In this document: one piece after another, positions 2,107 through 25,645 of the stretch
How positions within the stretch are numbered: the first letter of the stretch is position 1
Layout of the letters: every line of letters begins with the position of its first letter
From: Candidatus Iainarchaeum sp.
GTDB taxonomy: Archaea > Iainarchaeota > Iainarchaeia > Iainarchaeales > GCA-2688035
Reading direction: 5' to 3'
Assembly (NCBI GenBank): GCA_028713935.1
Contig: JAQTNI010000008.1
Location: 1 to 32,000, forward strand
Length of the DNA stretch: 32,000 nt
The notes under the pieces: model-generated
The model's input: only the letters and a program-made list of their open reading frames with translations
Databases searched by the model: none
Told to the model about the DNA's origin: nothing
Translations under genes and position numbers: made by a program

Positions 2107-4398
2107 TCACTTTTTTGCGTATTTCAAGAATTGCGCCAAAAGCGCTTCCAGTTGTATTCTTTCGTTTGCGCCTTCCACAATGCGAAAATCGTATTCGCCA
2201 ATTGTGTCAACAAGCGCTATCCTTGTTTTGCTCGGGATTTCCGTTTCAGGGGCATCGATTATTTCCCTGTAAAGCTGCAGCATTATGTCTTCTGCCGACA
2301 TTCCATGCTCAAACATCAGCTCGTCAAGCTTTTTCCTTGCATCCAGAAAGTTTCCGCCCAATGCAAGTTCAATCATCTGCTTTATTTCTTCAGGGCGGGC
2401 GCGGCTGCTGACGTCAAAAACAGTTTTTTCCAAAATGTTTTTTTCAAGGGAAGCGCATGCCTGCAGTATGTTCACTGCTTTTCTCATGTCTCCCATTGAA
2501 ACATAAATAATTGCGTCCAGTGCCTTTTGATCGATTTTCAGGGATTCTTTTTCCGCAATTTCTTTTAAGCGTTCCTGCATTTCTTTTGAGCTTAATGGTT
2601 TGTAACGGAAAACCACGCATCTGCTTTGTATGGGTTCAAGTATCCTGCTTGAATAATTGCAGCTTAAAATAAACCTGCATGTTCTTGTGAATTTTTCCAT
2701 TGTCCTGCGCAGAGCCTGCTGTGCGTCTGTGGTTAATGCGTCGCTTTCATCCAGAAAAATTATTTTAAAATTCGCGTTAAAGGCAAGTGTCCTTGCAAAA
2801 TCCTTTATTGTGCCCCTTACAACATCAATTCCCCTTGAATCGCTATTGTGTAAAAGCACTGGGGCAGTGCCTCCAAAAAACATTTCACTTTCTGGAACGG
2901 AAAAATCATAAACCCAGTCATTGAAAGGCTCTTTATTGATTGATTTTACTTCCACTCCAAACAAAGCTGTTTGAAGGGCTTTTTTGAGCTTTTCTAAGCG
3001 CACTTGTTTTTCAAATGGCAAGGTTTCTATGAAGCCTATTACTAATTTTTTTGACATTCTTTTGCTTTTTTTGGAGTAAAGAGCATGACGCATGAAATAG
3101 TTAAAATCGATTCCCTCGCGTTTGAATGCTTCTATAATTGGTTTTGTCGGAAAAAGGTCTGTTTTGAGGTTTGATGCGCTTGATTTTTTCCAGACAATTC
3201 TTAATTCTTTTTTGTACAATGAACAGTCAAGTCCGCATGTTCTTGCAAGCCAAGCAACATCAATCAAATTTTCTTTTGATACTGAACTGTACCGAACCAT
3301 TCGGCCCCATTCTCCGCTGGCATCGCCCATGTAGCCTTTTAAAAAATCTATTTTTAGCTGCAGGGGAAGAGAGAAAACAAAGCTGGGCACGCGTTTTGAG
3401 TGCGAAAATTTTCTTTCCTGCTCTGGCGAGTAAAAGTTTTCCCTAAAAAATTTTGCCAATTGAGTATTAAAGGCCTGCACCTGAATTGAGGATTTTTTGC
3501 TTCTGTCAAAGCCGGAGGCCCCTAATTTTGTTTTTGCTTGCACTCCAAATTTTTCTTGCAATATTTTCGCTGTTTTTTCAGCAATTTCTTTTTCTTGGGG
3601 GTAGCCCAAAGTAAAAATTACATAACCACTGGTTTTTCGCTTATTCATCAGGCCTGCACAGCCTTCTGCGAGATACAACCCAAATAGCCAGGCAATATCA
3701 GCATCTATTGTTATTTGTTTCAGGTTAACATAAACCCGAGGATTTTTTATGGTTCCACTTCTTAGTTCATTGGCGAGAATTGGCGCAAACTTTTCAAAAT
3801 CAATCTGTGTTTGTTTTTCCGATAGGCTGTCGCTGAAGGACAGCAAAATATCGCCTTTTTCAATTTTCCCGCATTCTTTTGCCGAAAAATTTCCAAAAGA
3901 ATCCAAAACTATTACTGAATGATTAAGGCTTGTTTCTACTTTTCCGCCATCAAATTTGATTTTTGCAATAGTTGAAATTTTGTGCCTTGAAATAAGTGAA
4001 ACTGGCATAAAGCAAATTTTTCCATCAAGGTTTACAGAAAGTGTTTCTAAACCAGTGGGAAGCGCATTTTTTTCTTGCTCATCTAAAAAATAATTTTGTG
4101 CAAGCTCCGAAAAATTTGTCCTGAAAATTTTTTCATTTCTCTTTACCAAGATCGGAGTTTCCGGAGTTACGCTTGCATTCAATTCCAAAAAATTCCTTTC
4201 AAAGTCTTTTCCAAAAAGCTCTTTTGCAAGCGCAACCGCTGCGCTTGTTTTTCCAACTCCGGCTGGCCCTGAAAAAAGCAGGTTTGGCACATTTGCCTGT
4301 TTTACATAGCTTTCCAGCCTTCGGATTATTTCTTTCTGGCCAATCACATCAGCCAGTTTTGCAGGCCTGTATTTTTCAATCCATGGCAATTCCGGCAT
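2107..4398 (-). CDS. rfcS: Replication factor C small subunit (clamp loader), intein-containing precursor
   Basis: Motifs seen are MPELPWIEKYRP, Walker A GPAGVGKT, LELNA...SDSRGIDVV, Walker B IIFLDESD, SRC (PIQSRC) and a C-terminal helical domain. The ATG is at 4398 (cat at 4396-4398). The ORF-track extension to 4539 has no RFC-like sequence. The exteins total 320 aa. Confidence 0.93.
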   Translation of the reverse strand: MPELPWIEKYRPAKLADVIGQKEIIRRLESYVKQANVPNLLFSGPAGVGKTSAAVALAKELFGKDFERNFLELNASVTPETPILVKRNEKIFRTNFSELAQNYFLDEQEKNALPTGLETLSVNLDGKICFMPVSLISRHKISTIAKIKFDGGKVETSLNHSVIVLDSFGNFSAKECGKIEKGDILLSFSDSLSEKQTQIDFEKFAPILANELRSGTIKNPRVYVNLKQITIDADIAWLFGLYLAEGCAGLMNKRKTSGYVIFTLGYPQEKEIAEKTAKILQEKFGVQAKTKLGASGFDRSKKSSIQVQAFNTQLAKFFRENFYSPEQERKFSHSKRVPSFVFSLPLQLKIDFLKGYMGDASGEWGRMVRYSSVSKENLIDVAWLARTCGLDCSLYKKELRIVWKKSSASNLKTDLFPTKPIIEAFKREGIDFNYFMRHALYSKKSKRMSKKLVIGFIETLPFEKQVRLEKLKKALQTALFGVEVKSINKEPFNDWVYDFSVPESEMFFGGTAPVLLHNSDSRGIDVVRGTIKDFARTLAFNANFKIIFLDESDALTTDAQQALRRTMEKFTRTCRFILSCNYSSRILEPIQSRCVVFRYKPLSSKEMQERLKEIAEKESLKIDQKALDAIIYVSMGDMRKAVNILQACASLEKNILEKTVFDVSSRARPEEIKQMIELALGGNFLDARKKLDELMFEHGMSAEDIMLQLYREIIDAPETEIPSKTRIALVDTIGEYDFRIVEGANERIQLEALLAQFLKYAKK
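2845..4173 (-). mobile_element. Intein (443 aa) with LAGLIDADG homing-endonuclease domain inside rfcS
   Basis: The insertion lies between LELNA and SDSRGIDVV. It begins SVTPETPILV (Ser1) and ends VYDFSVPESEMFFGGTAPVLLHN, followed by Ser+1. There is a block-B-like SLNH and two LAGLIDADG-type motifs (LFGLYLAEGCAG and DFLKGYMGDASG). Removing it restores the conserved LELNASDxRGIDVV. Confidence 0.88.
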
Positions 4399-4521
4399 AG
4401 CAAAAACCCTTTCAATACAAAAGTTTTCTTCAAAAACCAATAAAAACCGATGCAATAACAATTTTTTCCTGCCCCCAATTATTTTTAATTGATACGCTCC
4501 AATTGTTAATACGGTAAAAAT

Positions 4522-5061
4522 ATGGCAAACGAGCATCACCCCGAAAAAGGCTTTGACCCATTGAAAATGATTCTTGGAATCATATTTTTCATTATTGCCT
4601 ATGCAGTGCTTTTTTTTGTTGGCAGCGCAAATTCCCAGATTGGCACAGCAGTTGCAAATATTCCTGTCTTAAACCTTGTTTTGCCAATTCCGCCTGTCAT
4701 TGACCCGCCTGGAAATCTCTTTCCCCAGGTTTCAATGATGCACCTGTTATTGCCCGCAATTGGCTTTTTGATTATTTTTTTCGGCACAGATTGGATAGGC
4801 AGGTTCTTTGAAACAAAGCACAGCAAAACAATTGTTTTCCCAATAATTTTCATTATTTTCTGCCTTGGAGCTTTTTTTGTTTCGCTTTACTGGATGGCAA
4901 CAGAAACAGCAGTCCTGAATGGAGTCCCAATAAGCCAGATTGTGCCAGATTTCTGGTCTTATTTCTGGAGTGAACTCAGGGTATCCGCTTTTTATCTTTT
5001 CCTGCTTGGCGGCCTATTGGGCTGGATTTCAAAAATAGTGCTTGAAAAAATCAAGCTGTAA
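4522..5061 (+). CDS. Hypothetical integral membrane protein
   Basis: This 179-aa ORF starts with ATG and has several long hydrophobic segments (ILGIIFFIIAYAVLFFV, LLLPAIGFLIIFF, IVFPIIFIIFCLGAFFVSLYW, FYLFLLGGLLGWI). It is divergent from rfcS. Confidence 0.6.
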   Translation: MANEHHPEKGFDPLKMILGIIFFIIAYAVLFFVGSANSQIGTAVANIPVLNLVLPIPPVIDPPGNLFPQVSMMHLLLPAIGFLIIFFGTDWIGRFFETKHSKTIVFPIIFIIFCLGAFFVSLYWMATETAVLNGVPISQIVPDFWSYFWSELRVSAFYLFLLGGLLGWISKIVLEKIKL

Positions 5062-8579: not shown

Positions 8580-10190
8580 TTAGGGCTTGAAGCCTATCCA
8601 GGAAACATTTTCATCCATCAGCCTGTTGAAGCCGCTTTTGTTTTTTGCAAAAGCCCTGAAAAAAATGCTTTTCTGCAATCCAAGCTTCAAAAGCATTTTC
8701 TGCTCATCGCTTTTTGTTTCAAGCTTAAGCTTCCTGTTCTGCGCTTCAAACCTTTTTATTGCGGTTGGATTTTCAAGTTCCGCAATAATCCATTCTTCCC
8801 CAAGTGCTTTCCTGGTTTTTTCAATTGTTTTGCAGCACAAATCAATATTTTTCTTTCTGGAAGAGGATTGCAAGGAATGCCTGCATGCCTGCAGCAATGA
8901 ATGCAGACCAAGCACTGGCTGCATTTTTTCAATTTCAATCCCCGCATTTTTTAAATAGGCTCTTTTTGCAAGTTCGCTTTTTTTAAGTTCAGCCAATTGC
9001 TTTGCTTTTTCAGCCAAAAAAACTGTTTTTTCCAAAAATTCTTCAGGAGAATTCGGCACAGCCTGTTTCAGCAGGTTCAATGCAATAAAAGAAAGAATCC
9101 CGTTTTTTGCGGGAATCCCATTAAAAGCCTGGAAATAATTTTTTTTGCAGTTCAGGAAACCTGCTTTTTTGCAGAGCTTTTTGTTTACAAGGCCAATCTT
9201 GTATTTTGTGTCAACCAAAAAAACAGGCTTCATGCCAGAATTGCCCGCAACTGTTTTTTCAAGAAATTTGTTTGCAAGCACAACAAGCGTTTCATTGTCA
9301 AGCTCAAATTCAGTGTTTTCAGGCACAAAAAGATTCAGCCCAATATTCCCCAAAGGCTTTTTTGTTGAAGCGCATGCAAGAGCCCCTGCGAAAAAGTCTG
9401 CAGCCTCTTCCGCCTGGCTTTTTTCAATAAGAGAGGCAATTGCAATGTTTGCTTCCGCAATATTAATCCCCCAGGAAAAAAATTTTTGCAGCTTGTTTTT
9501 CTGCTTTACGCATTCAAAAATTGTTTTTTTCATGCCAGCGCGCTTTTCGGCTTTTACTGTAAAAGCAGAGGGCTTTGTGCTGAAATCCCCTATGTTTGCA
9601 ATGAAAATGTCAGAAGAAAAATGCAAATCGCTTAATTCTTTTGGAATTACTTTCAAAAGATTGTATTCAGTGAGAATAGCCCTGTTTGAATAGGGCTGCC
9701 TTGAAATTTTTTGTTCAACTTCAAAAACAGGCAATCCAACTCTTGCATACTCATTTCTTATTGTTTCATGGCCGTATTCAAGCAGCTTTACATTTACAAG
9801 CTCCCTTATGAGCGCAGTTGTAAGATAGGAAATTTGCAGGCCATTGATTTTTTCCTCGACTTCCTTCCCGATTTTTTCCGAGACCCCTCTTGTGATTTTT
9901 GTTTCTTTCAGGAGGGATTTTATGATATTGCCCCTGTCAAAGGCAGTTATTTCCAGATTAGAGTTTCTCACTGTCATTCTCTGGAAAGAAGCAAAAATAT
10001 TCGCGGCTTTAGGGTCAAGTTCCCTCAGCACTTCCAATGCCCTGAGGCGCATTTTTTCAGGCTCTTTTGTTTCCATTGAATTTAATTCTTTTATGATTCT
10101 CACAATGCACCATTTGCTAGCATTTGCTTCCTCGCATTCCTTTGCAATTTTTTCAATTGCCTCTTCAATCGGTTCCTGTTCCTGAGCCAT
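8580..10190 (-). CDS. ATP-cone protein, NrdD-like (anaerobic ribonucleotide reductase N-terminal homolog) lacking a glycyl-radical C-terminus
   Basis: An ATP-cone pattern is present (FDRGNIIKSLLKETKITRGVSEKIGKEVEEKI...LIRELVNVKLLEYGH...YARVG), preceded by a partial ATP-cone-like end (ALEVLRELDPKAANIFASFQRM). The segment LSDLHFSSDIFIANIGDF resembles the NrdD aH..G.ihiHDl region. No Zn-ribbon CxxC or glycyl-radical motif is visible at the C-terminus. Confidence 0.5.
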   Translation of the reverse strand: MAQEQEPIEEAIEKIAKECEEANASKWCIVRIIKELNSMETKEPEKMRLRALEVLRELDPKAANIFASFQRMTVRNSNLEITAFDRGNIIKSLLKETKITRGVSEKIGKEVEEKINGLQISYLTTALIRELVNVKLLEYGHETIRNEYARVGLPVFEVEQKISRQPYSNRAILTEYNLLKVIPKELSDLHFSSDIFIANIGDFSTKPSAFTVKAEKRAGMKKTIFECVKQKNKLQKFFSWGINIAEANIAIASLIEKSQAEEAADFFAGALACASTKKPLGNIGLNLFVPENTEFELDNETLVVLANKFLEKTVAGNSGMKPVFLVDTKYKIGLVNKKLCKKAGFLNCKKNYFQAFNGIPAKNGILSFIALNLLKQAVPNSPEEFLEKTVFLAEKAKQLAELKKSELAKRAYLKNAGIEIEKMQPVLGLHSLLQACRHSLQSSSRKKNIDLCCKTIEKTRKALGEEWIIAELENPTAIKRFEAQNRKLKLETKSDEQKMLLKLGLQKSIFFRAFAKNKSGFNRLMDENVSWIGFKP

Positions 10191-10296: not shown

Positions 10297-10770
10297 ATGA
10301 GGGTTTCTCTTGACAAGATTGATTTGGTTGTAATCCAGAAGCTTATTGAAGACGGAAGGGCAAGCTTTTCCAGCATTGCAAAGGAAGCAAAGCTGACCGA
10401 TGTTGCGATTAAAAAGCGCGTTGAAAGCCTAAAGCGAAAAGGAGTTATTTCTTCCATAACAGCAAACCTGAGTTACAAAACCTTGGGATTTGAAAACCCT
10501 ATTTTTATCCAGATAAGAAGCGAGGTTGCAAAAAACAAGGACCTGATAAAAAAATTGTCTGCGCTTGATTATGTCTGCGAGCTTTACCAGGTGCTTGGGG
10601 AATACAATTTGCTTGCAAAAATAATTGTGCAGGATCTTGATGCTGCTGAAAAAACAATCAGCAGGCTTGGCACTATTGATGGCATACTTGACCTGAAAAC
10701 TCTTGTTGTGCTGACAGAAATAAAGCGCTCCGGCGCCCTTCCTTCAGAAGCACTGCAAAAAAAGCTTTAA
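10297..10770 (+). CDS. Lrp/AsnC family transcriptional regulator
   Basis: The wHTH region is LDKIDLVVIQKLIEDGRASFSSIAKEAKLTDVAIKKRVESLKRKGVI. It is followed by a RAM/AsnC_trans_reg-like half (ELYQVLGEYNLLAKIIV). Confidence 0.85.
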   Translation: MRVSLDKIDLVVIQKLIEDGRASFSSIAKEAKLTDVAIKKRVESLKRKGVISSITANLSYKTLGFENPIFIQIRSEVAKNKDLIKKLSALDYVCELYQVLGEYNLLAKIIVQDLDAAEKTISRLGTIDGILDLKTLVVLTEIKRSGALPSEALQKKL

Positions 10771-10818
10771 GCCTGCAAAATTTAAATTGTTACGCCTGTT
10801 TTTATAGTGTGGTAAAAA

Positions 10819-11406
10819 TTGCCTGAAACAGCAAAGCCAATTGTGATTACAAGGATTGAAGTATTAGTTCACCCGTTTTACACTGGGATTAGTGGCATGG
10901 TGCTAAGACGATATAAAATGCAGGGGCAGGCTAATGCAAAAAAGCTCGCACATTACTGGGGAGAGCAAATCCAGAGTGCTGCCAAAGACCCTTCTGCAGT
11001 TCTTATTGTGGTTCCTTCCCCAAAAGCCAATTGGATCCCAACGAAACAGCAAAGACGGTATTATGAAGAGAGGCAAAAAAAATTGTTGCTTTTTGCAAAA
11101 AAAGCACTTGGGCAAAGGTTTTTTTGCTTTCGCAATTTTTTACAATTCCAGAATTTTAATGAGCAATTTAATGCAAGAGGTTTTACCTTAGACAAAAGCA
11201 CTTTGCACGGAAAGGTTTTTGGAGAATATTTGCCCATGTGTGTTTCTGCGGCACAGATTAAATTATGCGAAATCTTGGGCATTAATTCCAACAATTTACA
11301 AAGAGAAATGCGGCTAAGTGTTGGAGACGCTTTTGAGTATGTTGGGGGAAAAAGAAGAAGGGCAAATCCAAGGAAAGCGATAAGAAGGCAAGTTAGAGGA
11401 AAATGA
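10819..11406 (+). CDS. Hypothetical protein, tandem paralog A (basic C-terminal tail)
   Basis: This 195-aa ORF has a TTG start at 10819. No in-frame ATG lies upstream of the conserved N-terminus. It is clearly homologous to the next ORF (ITRIEVLVHPFY / ISRIEVLVHPFF; KKLLLFAKKALGQRFF / KKLLVFAKKTLGNRLF; FGEYLPMCV / FGEYLDLCV). Confidence 0.65.
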   Translation: MPETAKPIVITRIEVLVHPFYTGISGMVLRRYKMQGQANAKKLAHYWGEQIQSAAKDPSAVLIVVPSPKANWIPTKQQRRYYEERQKKLLLFAKKALGQRFFCFRNFLQFQNFNEQFNARGFTLDKSTLHGKVFGEYLPMCVSAAQIKLCEILGINSNNLQREMRLSVGDAFEYVGGKRRRANPRKAIRRQVRGK

Positions 11407-12017
11407 TTTTTATGTCTGGAATAAAACAGCCAATTATGATTTCGCGTATAGAAGTTTTGGTGCACCCGTTTTTCACGCTAATTTGTAATAGAGACAGTTT
11501 TATTGGGGATAATAAAAAGCAGGTGAAAAAAAAAATTGAGGCTCTTGCGAAGCAATGGGGAAGGGAGATACAATTAGTTGCCTCAGATCCTTCAGCAATT
11601 TTGGTTGTAATGCCTACTTACAAGCAGGTGCCTGTTTCAAATAGCCCTAATAGCAAGCTGAGCAAATGGAGCGCCTTGCAATTGAAAAAATTATTGGTTT
11701 TTGCAAAAAAAACTCTTGGAAACAGGCTTTTTGCTTTCAGCACTTTTGGGCAACTCCAATCTTTGGAAAATGCCGCTAGAAAAAAAGGTTTTGTTTTTGA
11801 CAAAAAAGCTTTGCGCGGAAGGGCTTTTGGCGAATACCTGGATCTTTGTGTCCAGACAGCGCAGGAAGTATTATGCAAAGGCCTGGGAATTGGCGTGGAA
11901 AGAATTCCGGTTTCCCGAAGGTTAGGTGTTGAAGGCGTGCACGATTATTTTGAATTCAAAACAAAACCCCCTGCCAAAAAGAAAAGAGCATCAAGCTCAA
12001 GAAGGCGCCCTGTATGA
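11403..12017 (+). CDS. Hypothetical protein, tandem paralog B (basic C-terminal tail)
   Basis: This 204-aa ORF has ATGA start/stop overlaps with paralog A at 11403-11406 and with topA at 12014-12017. The C-terminus reads KPPAKKKRASSSRRRPV. Confidence 0.7.
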   Translation: MIFMSGIKQPIMISRIEVLVHPFFTLICNRDSFIGDNKKQVKKKIEALAKQWGREIQLVASDPSAILVVMPTYKQVPVSNSPNSKLSKWSALQLKKLLVFAKKTLGNRLFAFSTFGQLQSLENAARKKGFVFDKKALRGRAFGEYLDLCVQTAQEVLCKGLGIGVERIPVSRRLGVEGVHDYFEFKTKPPAKKKRASSSRRRPV

Positions 12018-14206
12018 TTCTTATCGTTTCTGAAAAGCCTATTGCGGGAGAAAGGATTACTGCCATTCTTTCCGATGGAAAATTCCAGACCCAGGGAAGC
12101 GGAAGGGCTGTTTTTTTTGTTTTTGAGAAATCAGGCCAGCAATTCACCACTGTTCCCTTGAAGGGGCATGTCAGGGATGTGGATTTTCCTGTCCAGTACC
12201 AGAGCTGGATTGGGACTGATTTGAAGCAGCTTGCCAATGCAAAAATAAATTATATTGACACTGAAAAGGAAATTGTTGAATTGCTCAAAAAGGTCGCTCC
12301 AAGCGCGGAAAAAATAATTATTGCAACAGATGCTGACAGGGAAGGCGAATCAATCGGCCTTGAGGCTTTGAATGCAGTGAAATCAGTCAATCCAAAAATA
12401 AAAGTTGAAAGGGCAATTTTTTCAGCCATAACCCCTAAAGACATAAATCCTGCTTTTGAAAAGCCAGTTGCCTTTGATTATAATCTGGCCGATTCTGCCG
12501 ATGCGCGCAGGGAAATTGACCTTGTCTGGGGAGCAGCGCTTACAAGATTTTTGTCAATTGTTTCAGGAAAGCTTGGAAAAGAATTTTTGAGCGCAGGAAG
12601 AGTCCAGATGCCAACCCTGAAACTTATTGTTGACAGGGAAAAAGAAAGAACTGCTTTTCTAATAAAGCCTTTCTGGGAATTACAGGCAATTTTTAGGAAA
12701 GGTACAGAACAATTCCCCGCAGAACATAAGAAAGGAAGGTTCTGGAACAAGGAAGAGGCAGAAAAGGCTTTTGACTGCCAAAAACCCCCAATCGGAATTG
12801 TTTTAAGCGTGGAAAAAAAGCACAGGATAATTTCAAAGCCAATTCCTTTCAACACAACAGGCTTTTTAAGAAGCGCAACCGCAATCGGGTTTTCAGCAAG
12901 CCAGGCAATGAGCATTGCTGAATCCTTGTACCAGGCAGGGTTTATTTCTTATCCCAGGACTGACAATTCCGTTTATCCCGCGAGCCTTGACATCAGGGCA
13001 ACTCTGGCAGAGCTTGGAAAAGTAAAGGAATTTTCAAAGGACACTGAAAAATTGCTTGCCATGAAACAGATTGTCCCGAGCAGGGGCAAGGAGGCAAAAG
13101 ACCATCCTCCTGTGCATCCTGTTGCTGCCGCAAAAAAAGATTTTTTGGCTTTGCAGCAATGGAAAATTTATGAGCTTGTCTGCAGGCATTTTTTTGCTAC
13201 TCTTGCAGAGGATGCTGAAACAGAAAACATGCTTGTTGAAATTGATTTGAATAAGCAGCCTTTTGTTGCGCATGGGCAGATTTTTACAAAGCTTGGCTGG
13301 AAAGAATTTTACCGTTATTCAAAGGCAACAGAAGTAGAACTTCCAAAGCTTGAAAAAGGCGACAAGCTTGATTTGGTGAAGCTTGATTTGCTTGAAAAGG
13401 CAACAGAGCCTCCTGCGCGTTACAGCCAGGGTGCACTGATAAAATTAATGTCTGACTTGAATCTCGGGACAAAGGCAACCCGCGCGGAAATAATCCAAAA
13501 GCTTTATGCAAGGCAGTATATTTCAGGGCAGAAGGCAATTGTCCCGAACAGGATTGCTTTTGCAGTGATTGATTCCCTTGAAAAATACGGTGAAAAAGTT
13601 GTCAAGCCAGAAATGACTTCTGACCTTGAAAAAGAAATGGATATTGTTGCTGCGGGTTCAAGGCAGAAAGAATCAGTTGTTGAAGAATCAAGGGGATTTT
13701 TGCTCGGCATTCTGGATGAATTGTTGAAGAACAGGGCAAATATTGGCTCTCTCATAAGGGATGCTGCGAGGTCTGATTCCATTGTTGGAAAATGCGGAAA
13801 AGGTGGCTGTGAAGGAAATTTGATAATAAGGCATGGCAGGACTGGCAAAAGGTTTTTGGGCTGCACAAAGTATCCCCAATGCACAAACACTTTCCCCCTT
13901 CCCCAAAAAGGAAAAATTATTCCTACTGAAAAAAAATGCCCTGACTGCGGCAATATTGTAATCCAGGTTGCTGGCGGAAGGCGCAGGTTTGAAATGTGCA
14001 TTGACATGAACTGCAAAAGCAAGGATGCCTGGAAAAAAGCCTCACTCGAAAAAGCTGCAAAAAAAGAAGCCGATGAAAAAGCAAAGGCAGCTGAAGTAAT
14101 TCCCGCAGAAAAAGCAATTGAAAAGCCAGTGAAAGAAAAAAAGAGGCAGTTGAAAAAACCAGCAAAAAAGCCAAAAAAAGAAAAGAACAAACCCCAAAAA
14201 ATTTAA
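12014..14206 (+). CDS. topA: DNA topoisomerase, type IA (archaeal TopA / Topo III-like)
   Basis: The Toprim region is ILIVSEKP...IIATDADREGESIG. The active-site tyrosine context is GFISYPRTDN. Two C-terminal Zn-ribbon-like Cys clusters are present (CGKGGCEG...CTKYPQC and CPDCG...CIDMNC), followed by a Lys-rich tail. Confidence 0.92.
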   Translation: MILIVSEKPIAGERITAILSDGKFQTQGSGRAVFFVFEKSGQQFTTVPLKGHVRDVDFPVQYQSWIGTDLKQLANAKINYIDTEKEIVELLKKVAPSAEKIIIATDADREGESIGLEALNAVKSVNPKIKVERAIFSAITPKDINPAFEKPVAFDYNLADSADARREIDLVWGAALTRFLSIVSGKLGKEFLSAGRVQMPTLKLIVDREKERTAFLIKPFWELQAIFRKGTEQFPAEHKKGRFWNKEEAEKAFDCQKPPIGIVLSVEKKHRIISKPIPFNTTGFLRSATAIGFSASQAMSIAESLYQAGFISYPRTDNSVYPASLDIRATLAELGKVKEFSKDTEKLLAMKQIVPSRGKEAKDHPPVHPVAAAKKDFLALQQWKIYELVCRHFFATLAEDAETENMLVEIDLNKQPFVAHGQIFTKLGWKEFYRYSKATEVELPKLEKGDKLDLVKLDLLEKATEPPARYSQGALIKLMSDLNLGTKATRAEIIQKLYARQYISGQKAIVPNRIAFAVIDSLEKYGEKVVKPEMTSDLEKEMDIVAAGSRQKESVVEESRGFLLGILDELLKNRANIGSLIRDAARSDSIVGKCGKGGCEGNLIIRHGRTGKRFLGCTKYPQCTNTFPLPQKGKIIPTEKKCPDCGNIVIQVAGGRRRFEMCIDMNCKSKDAWKKASLEKAAKKEADEKAKAAEVIPAEKAIEKPVKEKKRQLKKPAKKPKKEKNKPQKI

Positions 14207-14260: not shown

Positions 14261-14728
14261 ATGGCTGGAAGGATTCGTTCAGTTGGAAAAAGAGCGTGGG
14301 CCACTATTCGTGGTAGCATGGCAAGGAAACCTGTCTTCAGGGGCAGAAAAATAGGCGTTGATGCGCAAGAGGCTGTTTTTCATTTGAAGGATGCACGGTT
14401 GACACGAACCATTGGCACAGTGTTTGCAGCTCTTTCTGGGGTTGGGATTCAGCATCATGCAATTGCGAAGGGCGCGCAGGCAGTAGCCAATGCCATGATT
14501 TTTCAGATGGTTGCAGTGAACGGAATAAGGAGTGCAACAAAGTTTGTTGGAAAAGAATTGTCAAAAGAAGCTTTACAAAATCAAGACCTTAAAACTTTTC
14601 TGCAATCTTACAAATTTGTGATTATTGACAGGAAAGGCAGAATCAGGGGCACTGATCAAAAGCAAGTTTTGCAAGGGGTTGGCAGGATTCGCTTAGAAAC
14701 AAGTAGAATTTTGAACAACTGGTATTAA
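14261..14728 (+). CDS. Hypothetical protein (basic N-terminus MAGRIR...)
   Basis: This 155-aa ORF has a TTTATAC box about 26 nt upstream of the ATG, a leaderless-type layout. I recognised no family. Confidence 0.5.
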   Translation: MAGRIRSVGKRAWATIRGSMARKPVFRGRKIGVDAQEAVFHLKDARLTRTIGTVFAALSGVGIQHHAIAKGAQAVANAMIFQMVAVNGIRSATKFVGKELSKEALQNQDLKTFLQSYKFVIIDRKGRIRGTDQKQVLQGVGRIRLETSRILNNWY

Positions 14729-14858: not shown

Positions 14859-15006
14859 CCCAACTCAATTGGTTTTGTCCTCCTAAGTTATGGTATAGAT
14901 ATACGGCTGTTCCTAAATATATAAAACAACTGACTTTTGATGTAACAAAAAATACATTTTAAATATCTTTGATGTGATATTTTTAATATTGGAATTGGTT
15001 TTTTTT

Positions 15007-15546
15007 ATGGCTTCTGCACCGAAACTTGATGATTCTATCCGCCTTAAAATTCTTGAGGCTTTATTGAAAAATGGCACTGTCACTCCCCATATAAGGCAGA
15101 TTCAGAAAATAACAGGCTTCCACAAGGCCACAATCAAAAGTTCCCTTGATTTTTTGAAAAAAGAAGGCGTTGTTCAGGGCTTTGGCCCGAAAATTAACAT
15201 GAAAAAATTCGGCCAGTCACTTGAAGTTTTTTTCTTTCTGCAGGCAGACACTTCGCAAAAAAAAATTTTTGAAAAATTTTTGGAAACAGCAAAAGATGAT
15301 CCCCATCTTTTCAGGATTTCCGCAATAATCGGCTCGGGTAACTGGAACCTGCTTGCGCGCTTCCTTTACAGGGATGTTGAGTCTTTTCACCATGAACTGC
15401 AAAAAAAATATTATGATGCGATTCCGGGCTTTTATGATTTGGTGAAAAACAGGCAGGTTTTTTATGCAACAGAGCCGCAGTACAAAGGCTCTTCAATAAC
15501 AGATTCAATAATCCAGATATTAAAAAAAGAAAAGGGGCTTGACTGA
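15007..15546 (+). CDS. Winged-helix transcriptional regulator (Lrp/ArsR-like, with C-terminal ligand-type domain)
   Basis: The wHTH pattern is LDDSIRLKILEALLKNGTVTPHIRQIQKITGFHKATIKSSLDFLKKEGVV. The ATG is at 15007; the ORF-track GTG at 14974 adds only a hydrophobic extension. Confidence 0.6.
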   Translation: MASAPKLDDSIRLKILEALLKNGTVTPHIRQIQKITGFHKATIKSSLDFLKKEGVVQGFGPKINMKKFGQSLEVFFFLQADTSQKKIFEKFLETAKDDPHLFRISAIIGSGNWNLLARFLYRDVESFHHELQKKYYDAIPGFYDLVKNRQVFYATEPQYKGSSITDSIIQILKKEKGLD

Positions 15547-16345
15547 CTTGGAAATAGAGCTTGACATTAACAAGAGCCTTGAAGAGAATGCTGCGCATTT
15601 TTTTGAGGAAAGCAAGAAGGCAAAGAAAAAGCTCAAAGGCCTGCTTCCTGCAATAGGGGAAACAGAGAAAAAAACAGCGAATATTGAAAAAGGGCAGTCG
15701 AAAAAGGAAGATGCCCTGCCATTGAAGAAAAGAAACAGGGCCTGGTTTGAGGCTTTTCACTGGTTTTTTTCAAGCGATGGGCTTCTTGTTATTGCGGGAA
15801 GAAGCGCAAAGGAAAATGAGCAGTTAGTGAAAAGGCATCTTGAAGAAGGGGATTTGTTTTTGCATGCTGATATTCAGGGAGGCGCTGCCACAATTGTCAA
15901 GCCTGAAGGAAAAAAAATTCCTGAAATTACATTGCTTGAAGCTGCAAATTTTGCGGGTGTTTTTTCCAAGGCCTGGCAATCTGGAATTCCTTCTGTTGAA
16001 GTTTATGCTGTTTCAAAAGAACAGGTTTCAAAAAAAGCCCCAACTGGGGAAGCGCTTTCAACTGGCGGCTTTATGATTTATGGTAAAAGGCAGTGGTTCA
16101 AGGCGGAAATGAAACTTGCAATTGGCCTTAAGAGGGAAGGTGATTATTTCATTGTAATTTCCGGGCCAGTGAATGCAGTGAAAAAACAGGCAGTTGCCGT
16201 AGTTGAAATAAAGCAGGGGAATTTGAAGGCAAGTGAAGCCGCAAAAAAAATCCTGAAAAAATTTTCAGAACAATTGAAACAGGAACCCAAGATAAGCCTT
16301 GATGAAATAATAAGAATGCTGCCAAGCTCAGATATTGGTTTTTAA
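15539..16345 (+). CDS. NFACT-R (DUF814) domain protein, short form lacking NFACT-N
   Basis: A coiled-coil N-terminus is followed by WFEAFHWFFSSDGLLVIAGRSAKENEQLVKRHLEEGDLFLHADIQGGAATIV, typical of the NFACT-R/DUF814 module of NEMF/Tae2/FbpA proteins. The start must be TTG (15539 or 15548), because the first in-frame ATG lies far inside the domain. Confidence 0.7.
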   Translation: MTDLEIELDINKSLEENAAHFFEESKKAKKKLKGLLPAIGETEKKTANIEKGQSKKEDALPLKKRNRAWFEAFHWFFSSDGLLVIAGRSAKENEQLVKRHLEEGDLFLHADIQGGAATIVKPEGKKIPEITLLEAANFAGVFSKAWQSGIPSVEVYAVSKEQVSKKAPTGEALSTGGFMIYGKRQWFKAEMKLAIGLKREGDYFIVISGPVNAVKKQAVAVVEIKQGNLKASEAAKKILKKFSEQLKQEPKISLDEIIRMLPSSDIGF

Positions 16346-24434: not shown

Positions 24435-24547
24435 TTTAAACATATTGCTTTTTTTCTTTGCGCATGGCAAAACGCCTGAAGCCCTTTTTGCCCCTGTTAT
24501 TTGTTTCAGGAAAAAATTTTAACTGATTGCTTTATAGTATTTTTTGC

Positions 24548-25645
24548 ATGCCAAACAATGTTTTTGAAAAATCATCAAAACTCAATCCTGTTTTCAAGGA
24601 TGAGCGTTTTTTGTATCCGGAATTTGTGCCTGAAAGGCTGCCTCACAGGGATTCTGAGATTGACGCGCTTGTTTATGCGCTCAAGCCAGTAACAGAGGGA
24701 AAAAAGCCCCAGAATGTTTTTCTTGCAGGAAAGCCGGGAACGGGGAAAACAGTGACTGCAAAGTTTGTCCTGAAAGAGCTTGAAGAATATTCCGACAGGG
24801 CAAAATTCTTGTATGTGAATTGCTTCAGGCTGAACACTCGGCATTCTGTTTTGACTGAAATTTCAAATTTTTTGGGCCTGCCTATTTCAAGGAGAGGCAC
24901 TTCTTCCGATGAGGCTCTTGACTCTGTTTTGCAGGCATTCAAAAAAATTTCTTTTACGCCAATAATTATTTTTGACGAGCTTGACCAGCTTGTTTTTCAG
25001 GGAGAAGCATCAGCACTTTTTTACGATCTCCTGAGAATTTTTGAATTCAGCAAGGCGCGCTTTGGAATAGTGATAATAAGCAACAATCCTGAAATTTTGC
25101 AGCAGCTTGATTCAAGGGTAAGAAGCAGCCTGATGCCTGAAACAATTGCCTTTGAAACTTACAATCCGCAGCAATTGAAAGACATCCTAAAAGAAAGGGC
25201 GCAGTTTGCTTTTTTTCCCGAAGCAGTTGAAGCGGATGCAATTAGCGTGGCAGCTGCCCATGCAGCAAAGCTTGGCGGGGATGCAAGAGTTGCAATTGAA
25301 TGCCTGTTAAAGGCAGGCAGGCTTGCTGAAAAGCAGAATGCAAAAAAAGTTTCTGTTGCTCACCTAAAAGAGGTTTTTTCAGGCATTGAAAACAGGGCAA
25401 TGCAGAAGGCAGAGCCTTTTTTAAGCGAGCACGAAAAATTAATTCTTTCTCTTGTGCCTCCAAATGAAAAAATTTCTTCCGGTTCTTTGTACAAAAAATT
25501 TTCCTTAAAATCAGGCCAAAAAATTTCGCAAAGGAGATTCAGGGCTTTTGTTTCAGCGCTTGAAAAAAAAGGCCTTCTGGAATGCGCTTTCACTGAAAAA
25601 GGCGTGAGAGGAAGGACAAGAATGATTGCATTGAAGGCGAAATAA
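24548..25645 (+). CDS. cdc6: Orc1/Cdc6 replication initiator
   Basis: Motifs seen are LPHRDSEIDAL, Walker A GKPGTGKT, Walker B IIIFDELD, GDARVAIECL and a C-terminal winged helix. The ATG is at 24548; the ORF-track TTG is at 24527. Confidence 0.9.
   Translation: MPNNVFEKSSKLNPVFKDERFLYPEFVPERLPHRDSEIDALVYALKPVTEGKKPQNVFLAGKPGTGKTVTAKFVLKELEEYSDRAKFLYVNCFRLNTRHSVLTEISNFLGLPISRRGTSSDEALDSVLQAFKKISFTPIIIFDELDQLVFQGEASALFYDLLRIFEFSKARFGIVIISNNPEILQQLDSRVRSSLMPETIAFETYNPQQLKDILKERAQFAFFPEAVEADAISVAAAHAAKLGGDARVAIECLLKAGRLAEKQNAKKVSVAHLKEVFSGIENRAMQKAEPFLSEHEKLILSLVPPNEKISSGSLYKKFSLKSGQKISQRRFRAFVSALEKKGLLECAFTEKGVRGRTRMIALKAK

Follow-up and report, generated by a model that had tools for sequence, protein, structure and literature searches.

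Two adjacent, related genes lie directly upstream of topA, the gene for a type IA DNA topoisomerase, on a contig of the archaeon Candidatus Iainarchaeum sp. (JAQTNI010000008.1, positions 1 to 32,000; we call this whole 32,000-nucleotide stretch the window), and they raise the question of what their products do and whether their chaining to topA means that they work with the topoisomerase. An earlier, sequence-only reading treated these open reading frames, ORF A and ORF B (NCBI locus tags PHD95_02075/02080), as orphans and as candidate topoisomerase accessory factors. We find that they belong to a family of DPANN archaeal proteins that combine a predicted Rossmann-like domain, an invariant cysteine and a basic tail, and that the link to topA is local packing in a compact genome, not a conserved functional partnership. 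The most likely function of the family, to which we give about an even chance, would be that of a lineage-specific, thiol-dependent enzyme with a tail that tethers it to nucleic acid. The locus is laid out as follows.

10297-10770, + strand: Lrp/AsnC-type regulator gene (Pfam AsnC_trans_reg 4e-12, plus an HTH_AsnC-type domain).
10771-10818, + strand: AT-rich intergenic region of 48 nt with TTTAAA and TTTTATA boxes and with GTGGTAAAAA just 5' of the TTG start of A; probably the promoter and ribosome-binding region, of archaeal type, for A-B-topA.
10819-11406, + strand: ORF A, 195 residues from a TTG start that is shared with both close relatives (hmmsearch with the family profile, 2e-56).
11403-11411, + strand: ATGATTTTT, equal at 8 of 9 positions to the first nine bases of topA (ATGATTCTT).
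11412-12017 (or from 11403), + strand: ORF B, 201 residues from the ATG at 11412, the start in the NCBI annotation (P0001, 201 residues), or 204 from the ATG at 11403 (hmmsearch 3e-54).
12014-14206, + strand: topA, archaeal type IA DNA topoisomerase I, 730 residues with a Lys-rich C-terminal tail.

The identity of the topoisomerase is clear: its product scores 815 bits against NCBIfam PRK07220, above the curated cutoff of 635, and combines a Topoisom_bac core (PF01131, 2e-117) with Toprim (PF01751) and zinc-ribbon (Zn_ribbon_Top1, PF01396) domains. A and B are paralogs, as the sequence-only reading had held. BLASTP aligns them over 180 residues at 41% identity (E 4e-43), and all the blocks it had listed as shared (RIEVLVHPF, DPSA[VI]L[IV]V, KKLL[LV]FAKK.LG.R.F.F, GF..DK..L.G..FGEYL..CV and LC..LGI) are found in both proteins. 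The Arg/Lys-rich tails that it described are equally real, with 10 Lys or Arg among the last 30 residues of A and 9 in B, and they are a trait of the whole family.

That reading recognised no family for the two proteins, and our searches of Pfam, NCBIfam, PADLOC and PHROG with A and B likewise returned nothing meaningful; the PDB searched by sequence gave no match from the single sequence and only kinesin noise from a profile of 62 sequences. The label of orphans does not hold, however. An exhaustive profile search, covering 1.84 billion cluster representatives, matched 211 of them at E<=1e-3, of which 62 also pass E<=1e-10. Such a search was needed to reveal the family at all, since a word-indexed homology search found only four close proteins (the two window proteins, P0002 and P0004), or 13 when run with a profile. 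Named members are all annotated as 'hypothetical protein' and come mostly from Candidatus Diapherotrites/Iainarchaeum, with one from Micrarchaeota, one from Woesearchaeota and others from an unclassified 'archaeon'; among these named members the family is restricted to DPANN archaea, chiefly Iainarchaeota/Diapherotrites. Among the matches listed, the proteins are 125-283 residues long, mostly about 180-280. A Pfam scan of 72 relatives (62 plus 10) found no credible domain, and the long members (270-283 residues) contain no extra domains by Pfam. A narrower-alignment search for related loci found two in GTDB genomes (L019 and L020) and none in JGI metagenomes or viral contigs, and tblastn gave no match in phage genomes and plasmids. 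The literature searched yielded no account of the family, nor of the genes that adjoin topA in archaea. Being absent from the four profile libraries, the PDB searches and the literature searched, the family appears undescribed. Uncharacterised families limited to one lineage are nothing unusual among DPANN archaea; in genomes this tiny, one that spans the lineage, has an invariant cysteine and lacks detectable relatives offers a sensible place to look for new chemistry or for a lineage-specific nucleic-acid function.

Conservation within the family is concentrated in a small set of residues. Counted over 154 aligned members and in ORF B numbering, Gly143 and Cys149 are each present in 153 of 153 sequences, His21 and Pro22 each in 147 of 150, Arg108 in 146 of 154, Trp52 and Glu144 each in 141 of 153, and Ser175 in 130 of 143. 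Together they define the signature (L/I)(L)VHP(F/L)(Y/F) ... W(G/K)..I..A..(D/N)P ... (F/Y)A...LG.R ... (R)GF ... (F/Y)GE(Y/W)...CV ... LS ..., followed by the Lys/Arg tail. The median isoelectric point (pI) of the family is 10.1, and in 64% of members at least 30% of the last 30 residues are Lys or Arg. One member, P0038 (L013, 2027-2863), carries a perfect triple tandem repeat (RLQHAKTKELLKYS three times) in the long helix before the LG.R motif; this reflects an error of assembly or else an in-frame expansion of recent date.

An AlphaFold2 model built from the 62-sequence alignment (pLDDT 89.1, pTM 0.83, core blocks at 94-98) predicts a Rossmann-like alpha/beta domain, with strands at residues 11-13, 15-20, 65-70, 109-111, 130-132 and 138-144 and helices at 24-28, 38-61, 85-108, 115-127 and 146-161. 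The last ~25 residues have pLDDT values of 67-72, and the basic tail is probably disordered. In this model His21-Pro22 directly follow strand 1 at its C-terminal end, Gly143-Glu144 end the last core strand, and the helix that follows has Cys149 at its N-terminus. The sequence-only reading had suggested an enzyme-like alpha/beta fold with a conserved cysteine, and the model agrees with it: the predicted fold is Rossmann-like, the cysteine is invariant in the GEY...CV motif, and a conserved histidine ends the VLVHPF strand.

We compared two such models with the PDB using Foldseek, and the better of them with BFVD. For the better model, the top PDB match is a putative isochorismatase (3kl2_I; probability 0.97, E 4e-3, TM 0.40/0.41); other 3kl2 chains score probabilities of 0.33-0.82, and the isochorismatase RutB reached only about 0.2 with the first model. 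Further weak matches, at TM ~0.3, are to N-domains of glucose-6-phosphate dehydrogenase, universal stress proteins and LmbE-type deacetylases. Generic Rossmann-like nucleotide-binding domains (universal stress proteins, the glucose-6-phosphate dehydrogenase N-domain and methylglyoxal synthase) fill most of this weak list and share the alternating beta-alpha topology, but none exceeds TM 0.35 and none has motifs in common with the family.

Isochorismatase-like hydrolases carry their catalytic cysteine in the motif G-(L/I)-A-T-x-x-C-V, and the spacing from glycine to cysteine is the same in the family's G-E-Y-x-x-x-C-V, a resemblance noted before the second Foldseek run. Aligning five E. coli members (pncA, the entB N-domain, rutB, ycaC and yecD) and comparing their profile with that of the family by hhalign placed the family's L...L..RGF...G.FGEY...CV onto L...LR..GI...G.AT..CV. 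The statistics of this alignment are poor, with a probability of 0.4% (P 0.15) for 62 family sequences and of 2% (P 0.024, score 20.0) for 154; a reversed profile scored 13.6 and 40 column-shuffled profiles at most 14.6, an excess that is local only. A low-confidence full-length hhalign alignment is colinear, placing LLVHP on ALLvD with the histidine one residue before the catalytic aspartate, Arg108 a few residues before the catalytic lysine, and cysteine on cysteine.

The family thus shares with isochorismatase-like hydrolases (PF00857; PncA, RutB, YcaC, 3kl2) an alpha/beta domain of ~200 residues, a hydrophobic first strand ending in a conserved polar residue, and a strand-Gly-x5-Cys-Val-helix motif with the spacing of G(L/I)ATxxCV; they are both its top Foldseek PDB match and its only hhalign local alignment. 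Unlike them, the family appears to lack the last beta-alpha-beta unit and has a conserved tryptophan, a conserved serine and a basic, disordered tail, and no Pfam match to PF00857 was found for A, B or the 62 relatives. Distant kinship to the cysteine-hydrolase fold is possible but unproven, and we leave the family outside that superfamily. As a tentative refinement of the thiol-enzyme reading, an isochorismatase-like origin seems to us possible and somewhat doubtful. The sequence-only reading had named two findings that together would refute its accessory idea, scattered homologs without topA linkage and a match to a well-known metabolic enzyme family; the second of these did not emerge beyond this weak signal.

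Other families were considered by their motifs and dropped: in pyroglutamyl peptidase the Glu-Cys-His order and GxxxC spacing do not fit, the G-x-C-x-G of a class I amidotransferase/DJ-1 nucleophile elbow is absent, the family protein has no DxD as in Toprim, and TIR and DsrE/TusD were set aside in the same way.

Whether the family is tied to topA depends on its wider genomic context, which we examined in twelve further loci.

L001 (Logan SRR22388082), short contig: family gene directly 5' of topA, with the same 4-nt overlap.
L002 (JGI 3300038466), short contig: AsnC, 48-nt spacer, family gene and topA, with the same 4-nt overlap.
L003: cytidylate-kinase-like gene, family gene, FKBP; a nucleoside deoxyribosyltransferase is among the neighbours.
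L006: family gene, AP-endonuclease-2-like gene; gyrB/gyrA convergent, two genes away.
L007: HAD, family gene.
L008: family gene, PP-loop ATPase.
L009: family gene, Csm6-like gene.
L011: CCA-adding enzyme, family gene; SMC_N protein nearby.
L012: NTP (nucleoside triphosphate) transferase, family gene.
L013: Metallophos gene divergent from and PadR convergent to the family gene.
L019: SAH (S-adenosylhomocysteine) hydrolase, family gene, ScpA.
L020: family gene, cupin; Hef convergent.

The sequence-only reading had asked whether homologs are syntenic with topA in related genomes. They are so only in the window, L001 and L002; in the ten more distant contexts (L003, L006-L009, L011-L013, L019 and L020) no topA adjoins the family gene, and the genes are scattered among other neighbours, which is the first of the two findings that this reading had said would count against it. 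The TopA proteins of L001 and L002 are 90-94% identical to that of the window, and the AsnC protein, which also lies upstream of the family gene in L002, is 90% identical. The three genomes are so nearly identical that they count as one evolutionary observation. Linkage confined to such close relatives leaves the proposed accessory role unsupported by synteny, though it could still apply within this clade: the topA link is evolutionarily shallow, and the chained overlaps owe most to duplication and compact gene packing. Family members do have genes for DNA transactions close by, at a distance of a few genes (topA, gyrBA, two cases of Hef, ScpA, SMC_N and Metallophos), in a raw tally of genes that are abundant in these small genomes; the Metallophos protein may be Mre11-like. 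The Hef-type gene (DEAD, Helicase_C, ERCC4 and HHH domains) lies 1-4 genes from the family gene at L003 8224-10488, in a metagenome-assembled genome (MAG) of Diapherotrites, and at L020 5963-8176, in a Woesearchaeota MAG, which may reflect residual synteny or chance.

The earlier proposal had A, B and topA chained by ATGA overlaps and read this as almost certain co-translation; the overlaps lie at 11403-11406 and 12014-12017. The B-topA overlap is firm and is kept in L001 and L002. The A-B overlap hinges on which ATG of B is used, as the ATG at 11412 lies 5 nt past the stop codon of A. As a sign of coupling the overlaps are real but weak evidence, since 5 of ~22 same-strand neighbour pairs in the window overlap (by 4-10 nt) and the A-B junction looks duplicated. 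The proteins of the window have a median predicted pI of ~9.4; overlaps and basic proteins alike are habits of this compact genome.

The duplication that produced A and B is specific to this genome, and the gene is normally single-copy. L002 holds a single copy between its 48-nt spacer and topA, and in L001 the 8 nt 5' of the gene match the spacer upstream of A and not the A-B junction, so both close relatives carry one copy. The spacer sequence itself is kept across its 48 nt in L002, and its final 8 nt in L001. Everywhere else the family profile finds one copy per locus, and a search with it found no further family copies in the window or in the relatives' loci. At the DNA level, a repeat finder aligns 10820-10883 with 11413-11476 (75%) and 11077-11150 with 11685-11758 (76%), a register that sets the TTG of A (10819) opposite the ATG at 11412 and gives a repeat unit of 593 nt, which is gene A plus 5 nt.

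ATGATTTTT, which fills the nine bases between the last sense codon of A and the ATG at 11412, is probably what is left of the opening three codons of topA after they were copied in the tandem duplication; this reading is suggestive only, the chance of four matches among the five bases beyond ATGA being ~0.03 by our own rough estimate. Most simply, the whole gene would have been duplicated in tandem together with those three codons, and the A-B ATGA overlap would then be a copy of the gene-topA junction and not an independently evolved coupling signal. These nine bases leave B with two possible in-frame starts, at 11403 (overlapping) or 11412 (5-nt gap), both of which are compatible with termination-reinitiation coupling. 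In the single-copy orthologs the N-terminus is nearer to A and the C-terminal tail nearer to B, a pattern that would follow if ancestral constraints continued to act on the outer ends of the duplicated pair. A retains all of the family-conserved residues (His, Pro, Trp, Arg, Gly-Glu, Cys and Ser), and B has glycine at the position of Ser175, a substitution found in only 3 of 143 members.

Two minor features of the 5' ends belong here. The TTG start preceded by GTGGTAAAAA recurs at window position 10819, L001 position 8 and L002 position 314 (the L001 contig holds only GTAAAAA of GTGGTAAAAA), and a conserved weak start of this kind may hold expression of the family gene below that of topA. Also, the N-termini of TopA (MILIVSEKPIAGERI, 12014-12040) and of the family (MPETAKPIVITRIEV, 10819-10850) have a common (E)(x)KPI(x)(I) string, which is probably a coincidence, though it adjoins the proposed duplication breakpoint.

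The family gene evolves fast. By Nei-Gojobori estimates of nonsynonymous (dN) and synonymous (dS) divergence between the window and L001/L002, topA and asnC show dN of 0.04-0.06 and dS of 0.44-0.78 (90-94% amino-acid identity). The single-copy orthologs P0002 and P0004 differ from each other by dN 0.33 and dS 0.62 (57% identity), A or B from either ortholog by dN 0.46-0.52 and dS 0.99-1.65 (44-49% identity), and A from B by dN 0.61 and dS 1.22 (40% identity). The family gene thus accumulates amino-acid change at 6-13 times the rate of its flanks (dN 0.33-0.52 versus 0.04-0.06), and omega, the ratio of the two rates, is ~0.4-1 when scaled to the neighbours' dS. The residues of the family-wide motifs stay fixed despite this fast evolution. 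Compared with the single-copy genes, both window copies have longer branches, which fits relaxation or divergence after duplication.

We propose that these observations describe a thiol enzyme with a disordered nucleic-acid anchor. The protein would consist of a compact Rossmann-like domain followed by the Lys/Arg tail, with the conserved residues placed where such folds build active sites: Cys149 would act as a nucleophile, activated by His21 and/or Glu144, and Arg108 would bind an anionic group, in an architecture that is possibly that of a very divergent isochorismatase-like cysteine hydrolase, while the basic tail would hold the enzyme on RNA or DNA. In the Ainarchaeum clade, with its tight order of AsnC, family gene and topA, the gene is probably co-transcribed and translationally coupled with topA. 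One ancestral DPANN family gene would then have duplicated in tandem in the present genome, as a unit of ~593 nt that probably included the first 9 nt of topA, and both copies would have diverged quickly. A, with all residues kept, may be the canonical enzyme, and B, with its serine lost, a diverging partner or the second subunit of a heteromer. The locus is in this respect a natural experiment, a fresh duplicate in which one conserved residue has been lost from one copy.

Several results weigh against this proposal. No significant sequence or structure match to any enzyme class was found: Foldseek against the PDB and BFVD returned no neighbour at E<1e-3 and a best TM of 0.40, 3kl2 is the sole scoring entry among many isochorismatase entries, and the hhalign probability to isochorismatases is only 2%. 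The Asp-Lys-Cys triad of those enzymes is not kept, with His-Pro and Arg roughly in the places of Asp and Lys and only the cysteine invariant. In the model, Arg108 precedes a short strand on its N-terminal side, whereas active sites usually form at the other edge. The high pI of the family is less special than it seems, as the proteome here is basic overall. An omega near 0.5-1 could be a sign of weak constraint, not a usual feature of housekeeping enzymes, and the recurring DNA-metabolism neighbours may point to a looser, chromosome-related role for the family.

The alternative that survives best, though we judge it unlikely, is that these are non-catalytic proteins associated with nucleic acid or with the ribosome, acting as small, basic chromatin, RNA-chaperone or ribosome factors specific to these archaea, in which His, Glu and Cys would make up a structural or regulatory site for metal or redox chemistry. 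The strongly basic family and its Lys/Arg-rich tails would suit such a role, as would the lack of any detectable enzyme family and the information-processing genes that are often neighbours (CCA-adding enzyme, aS21/EF1, RNase Z-like). On the other side, the high pI is partly proteome-wide, and invariant or near-invariant polar residues and Trp (Cys, His, Glu, Arg, Ser, Trp) at strand ends are more typical of a catalytic or ligand pocket. A metal site has one structural hint, the weak likeness (TM ~0.32) to LmbE-type metal hydrolases. Members of the LmbE family carry a strand-1 motif AHPDD and an HxxH zinc-ligand motif. Like the LmbE/PIG-L deacetylases (for example the Pyrococcus diacetylchitobiose deacetylase, 4xm1/8bgo), the family has a Rossmann-like fold with His-Pro after strand 1 (AHPDD versus VHPF), but the Foldseek probability does not exceed 0.41, the invariant residue of the family is cysteine, and nothing equivalent to the second His/Asp ligand motif of LmbE enzymes is conserved. 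We rejected membership in LmbE/PIG-L on this ground: the family motif is (L/I)VHP(F/L/D)(Y/F), with no conserved Asp pair or second His in the 154 sequences.

A small-molecule salvage amidohydrolase, a divergent isochorismatase/nicotinamidase-like enzyme whose substrate would be a nucleobase, nicotinamide or a related amide in salvage-dependent organisms, and whose tail would be incidental, seems to us distinctly unlikely. It draws on the top Foldseek match and on an alignment of the cysteine motif that exceeds its controls, and nucleotide and nucleoside enzymes do adjoin family members (cytidylate-kinase-like, nucleoside deoxyribosyltransferase, HAD phosphatases, SAH hydrolase and NTP transferase). 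The statistics behind the first two are weak (probability 2%, TM 0.40), the canonical triad is lost, the neighbour theme is heterogeneous and a raw tally, and the conserved basic tail would be left unexplained.

The topoisomerase accessory module first envisaged, in which A and B bind TopA or its DNA through their tails and modulate relaxation while the overlaps ensure stoichiometric co-production, we now consider very unlikely. The gene-topA overlap kept in three genomes of the clade, the basic tails, and the members near gyrB/gyrA (L006), Hef (L003, L020), ScpA (L019) and SMC_N (L011) speak for it. Yet those three genomes amount to a single evolutionary observation, overlaps are common in this genome, and in the next most divergent members (L008, L009 and L011, at 29-31% identity) and those beyond them, the immediate neighbours are unrelated (PP-loop ATPase, Csm6-like, CCA-adding enzyme, cytidylate-kinase-like, HAD, SAH hydrolase, NTP transferase and others). 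There is no topoisomerase fusion among the family profile matches, and the 6- to 13-fold faster change of the family gene next to a highly conserved TopA is not what a tight interface predicts. Type IA topoisomerases do have protein partners elsewhere, such as RMI1 or RecQ-family helicases with Topo III; the family resembles these in no more than the notion of a small protein made together with a type IA enzyme, and no sequence or fold relation to RMI1 or RecQ was detected. A combined version, in which an undescribed class of thiol enzyme, specific to Iainarchaeota-type DPANN archaea and built from a His/Glu/Cys/Arg pocket on a minimal Rossmann-like scaffold plus a nucleic-acid-tethering tail, acts on DNA or RNA (for example by adding or taking off a base or backbone modification) and was recruited and duplicated in the Ainarchaeum clade as an A/B heteromer working with TopA, likewise strikes us as improbable.

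A conflict-related or host-interaction gene caught in a virus/host arms race, which the high dN, an omega approaching 1 and the lineage-specific duplication might suggest, is highly improbable given the lack of PADLOC or PHROG matches and of relatives in viral contigs, phage or plasmid collections, the single-copy occurrence among housekeeping genes in all other loci, and the absence of any signal-peptide- or membrane-like hydrophobic segment by eye, without a predictor.

Several further features of the window deserve mention alongside the thiol-enzyme proposal. An ORF of 155 residues (14261-14728, + strand), 54 nt 3' of topA and with a predicted pI of 11.6, has no Pfam or NCBIfam match and may share a transcription unit with A-B-topA. 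Divergent to the AsnC gene, a protein of 536 residues (8580-10190, - strand) shows in Pfam no more than a weak match to the ATP-cone, which misses the cutoff (6.9e-5), and no ribonucleotide-reductase catalytic domain was detected in it. At 14974-16345 (+ strand) a helix-turn-helix protein (190 residues) overlaps by 8 nt with an NFACT-R_1 protein (268 residues) that has only an NFACT_N tail, and the pair looks like a truncated or split NFACT/RqcH-like protein. The gene for the small subunit of replication factor C (RFC; 2107-4539, - strand) encodes Rep_fac_C, AAA and RFC lid domains with an intein inside (Pfam Intein_splicing, residues 148-565); an ORF of 511 residues (575-2110, - strand), upstream of it and overlapping it, has no Pfam match and might be a candidate RFC large subunit. 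Finally, a Cdc6/Orc1 gene lies at 24527-25645 (+ strand), and the sign of the GC skew switches near 10 kb and near 20 kb, largely tracking gene strand; a replication origin could lie nearby.

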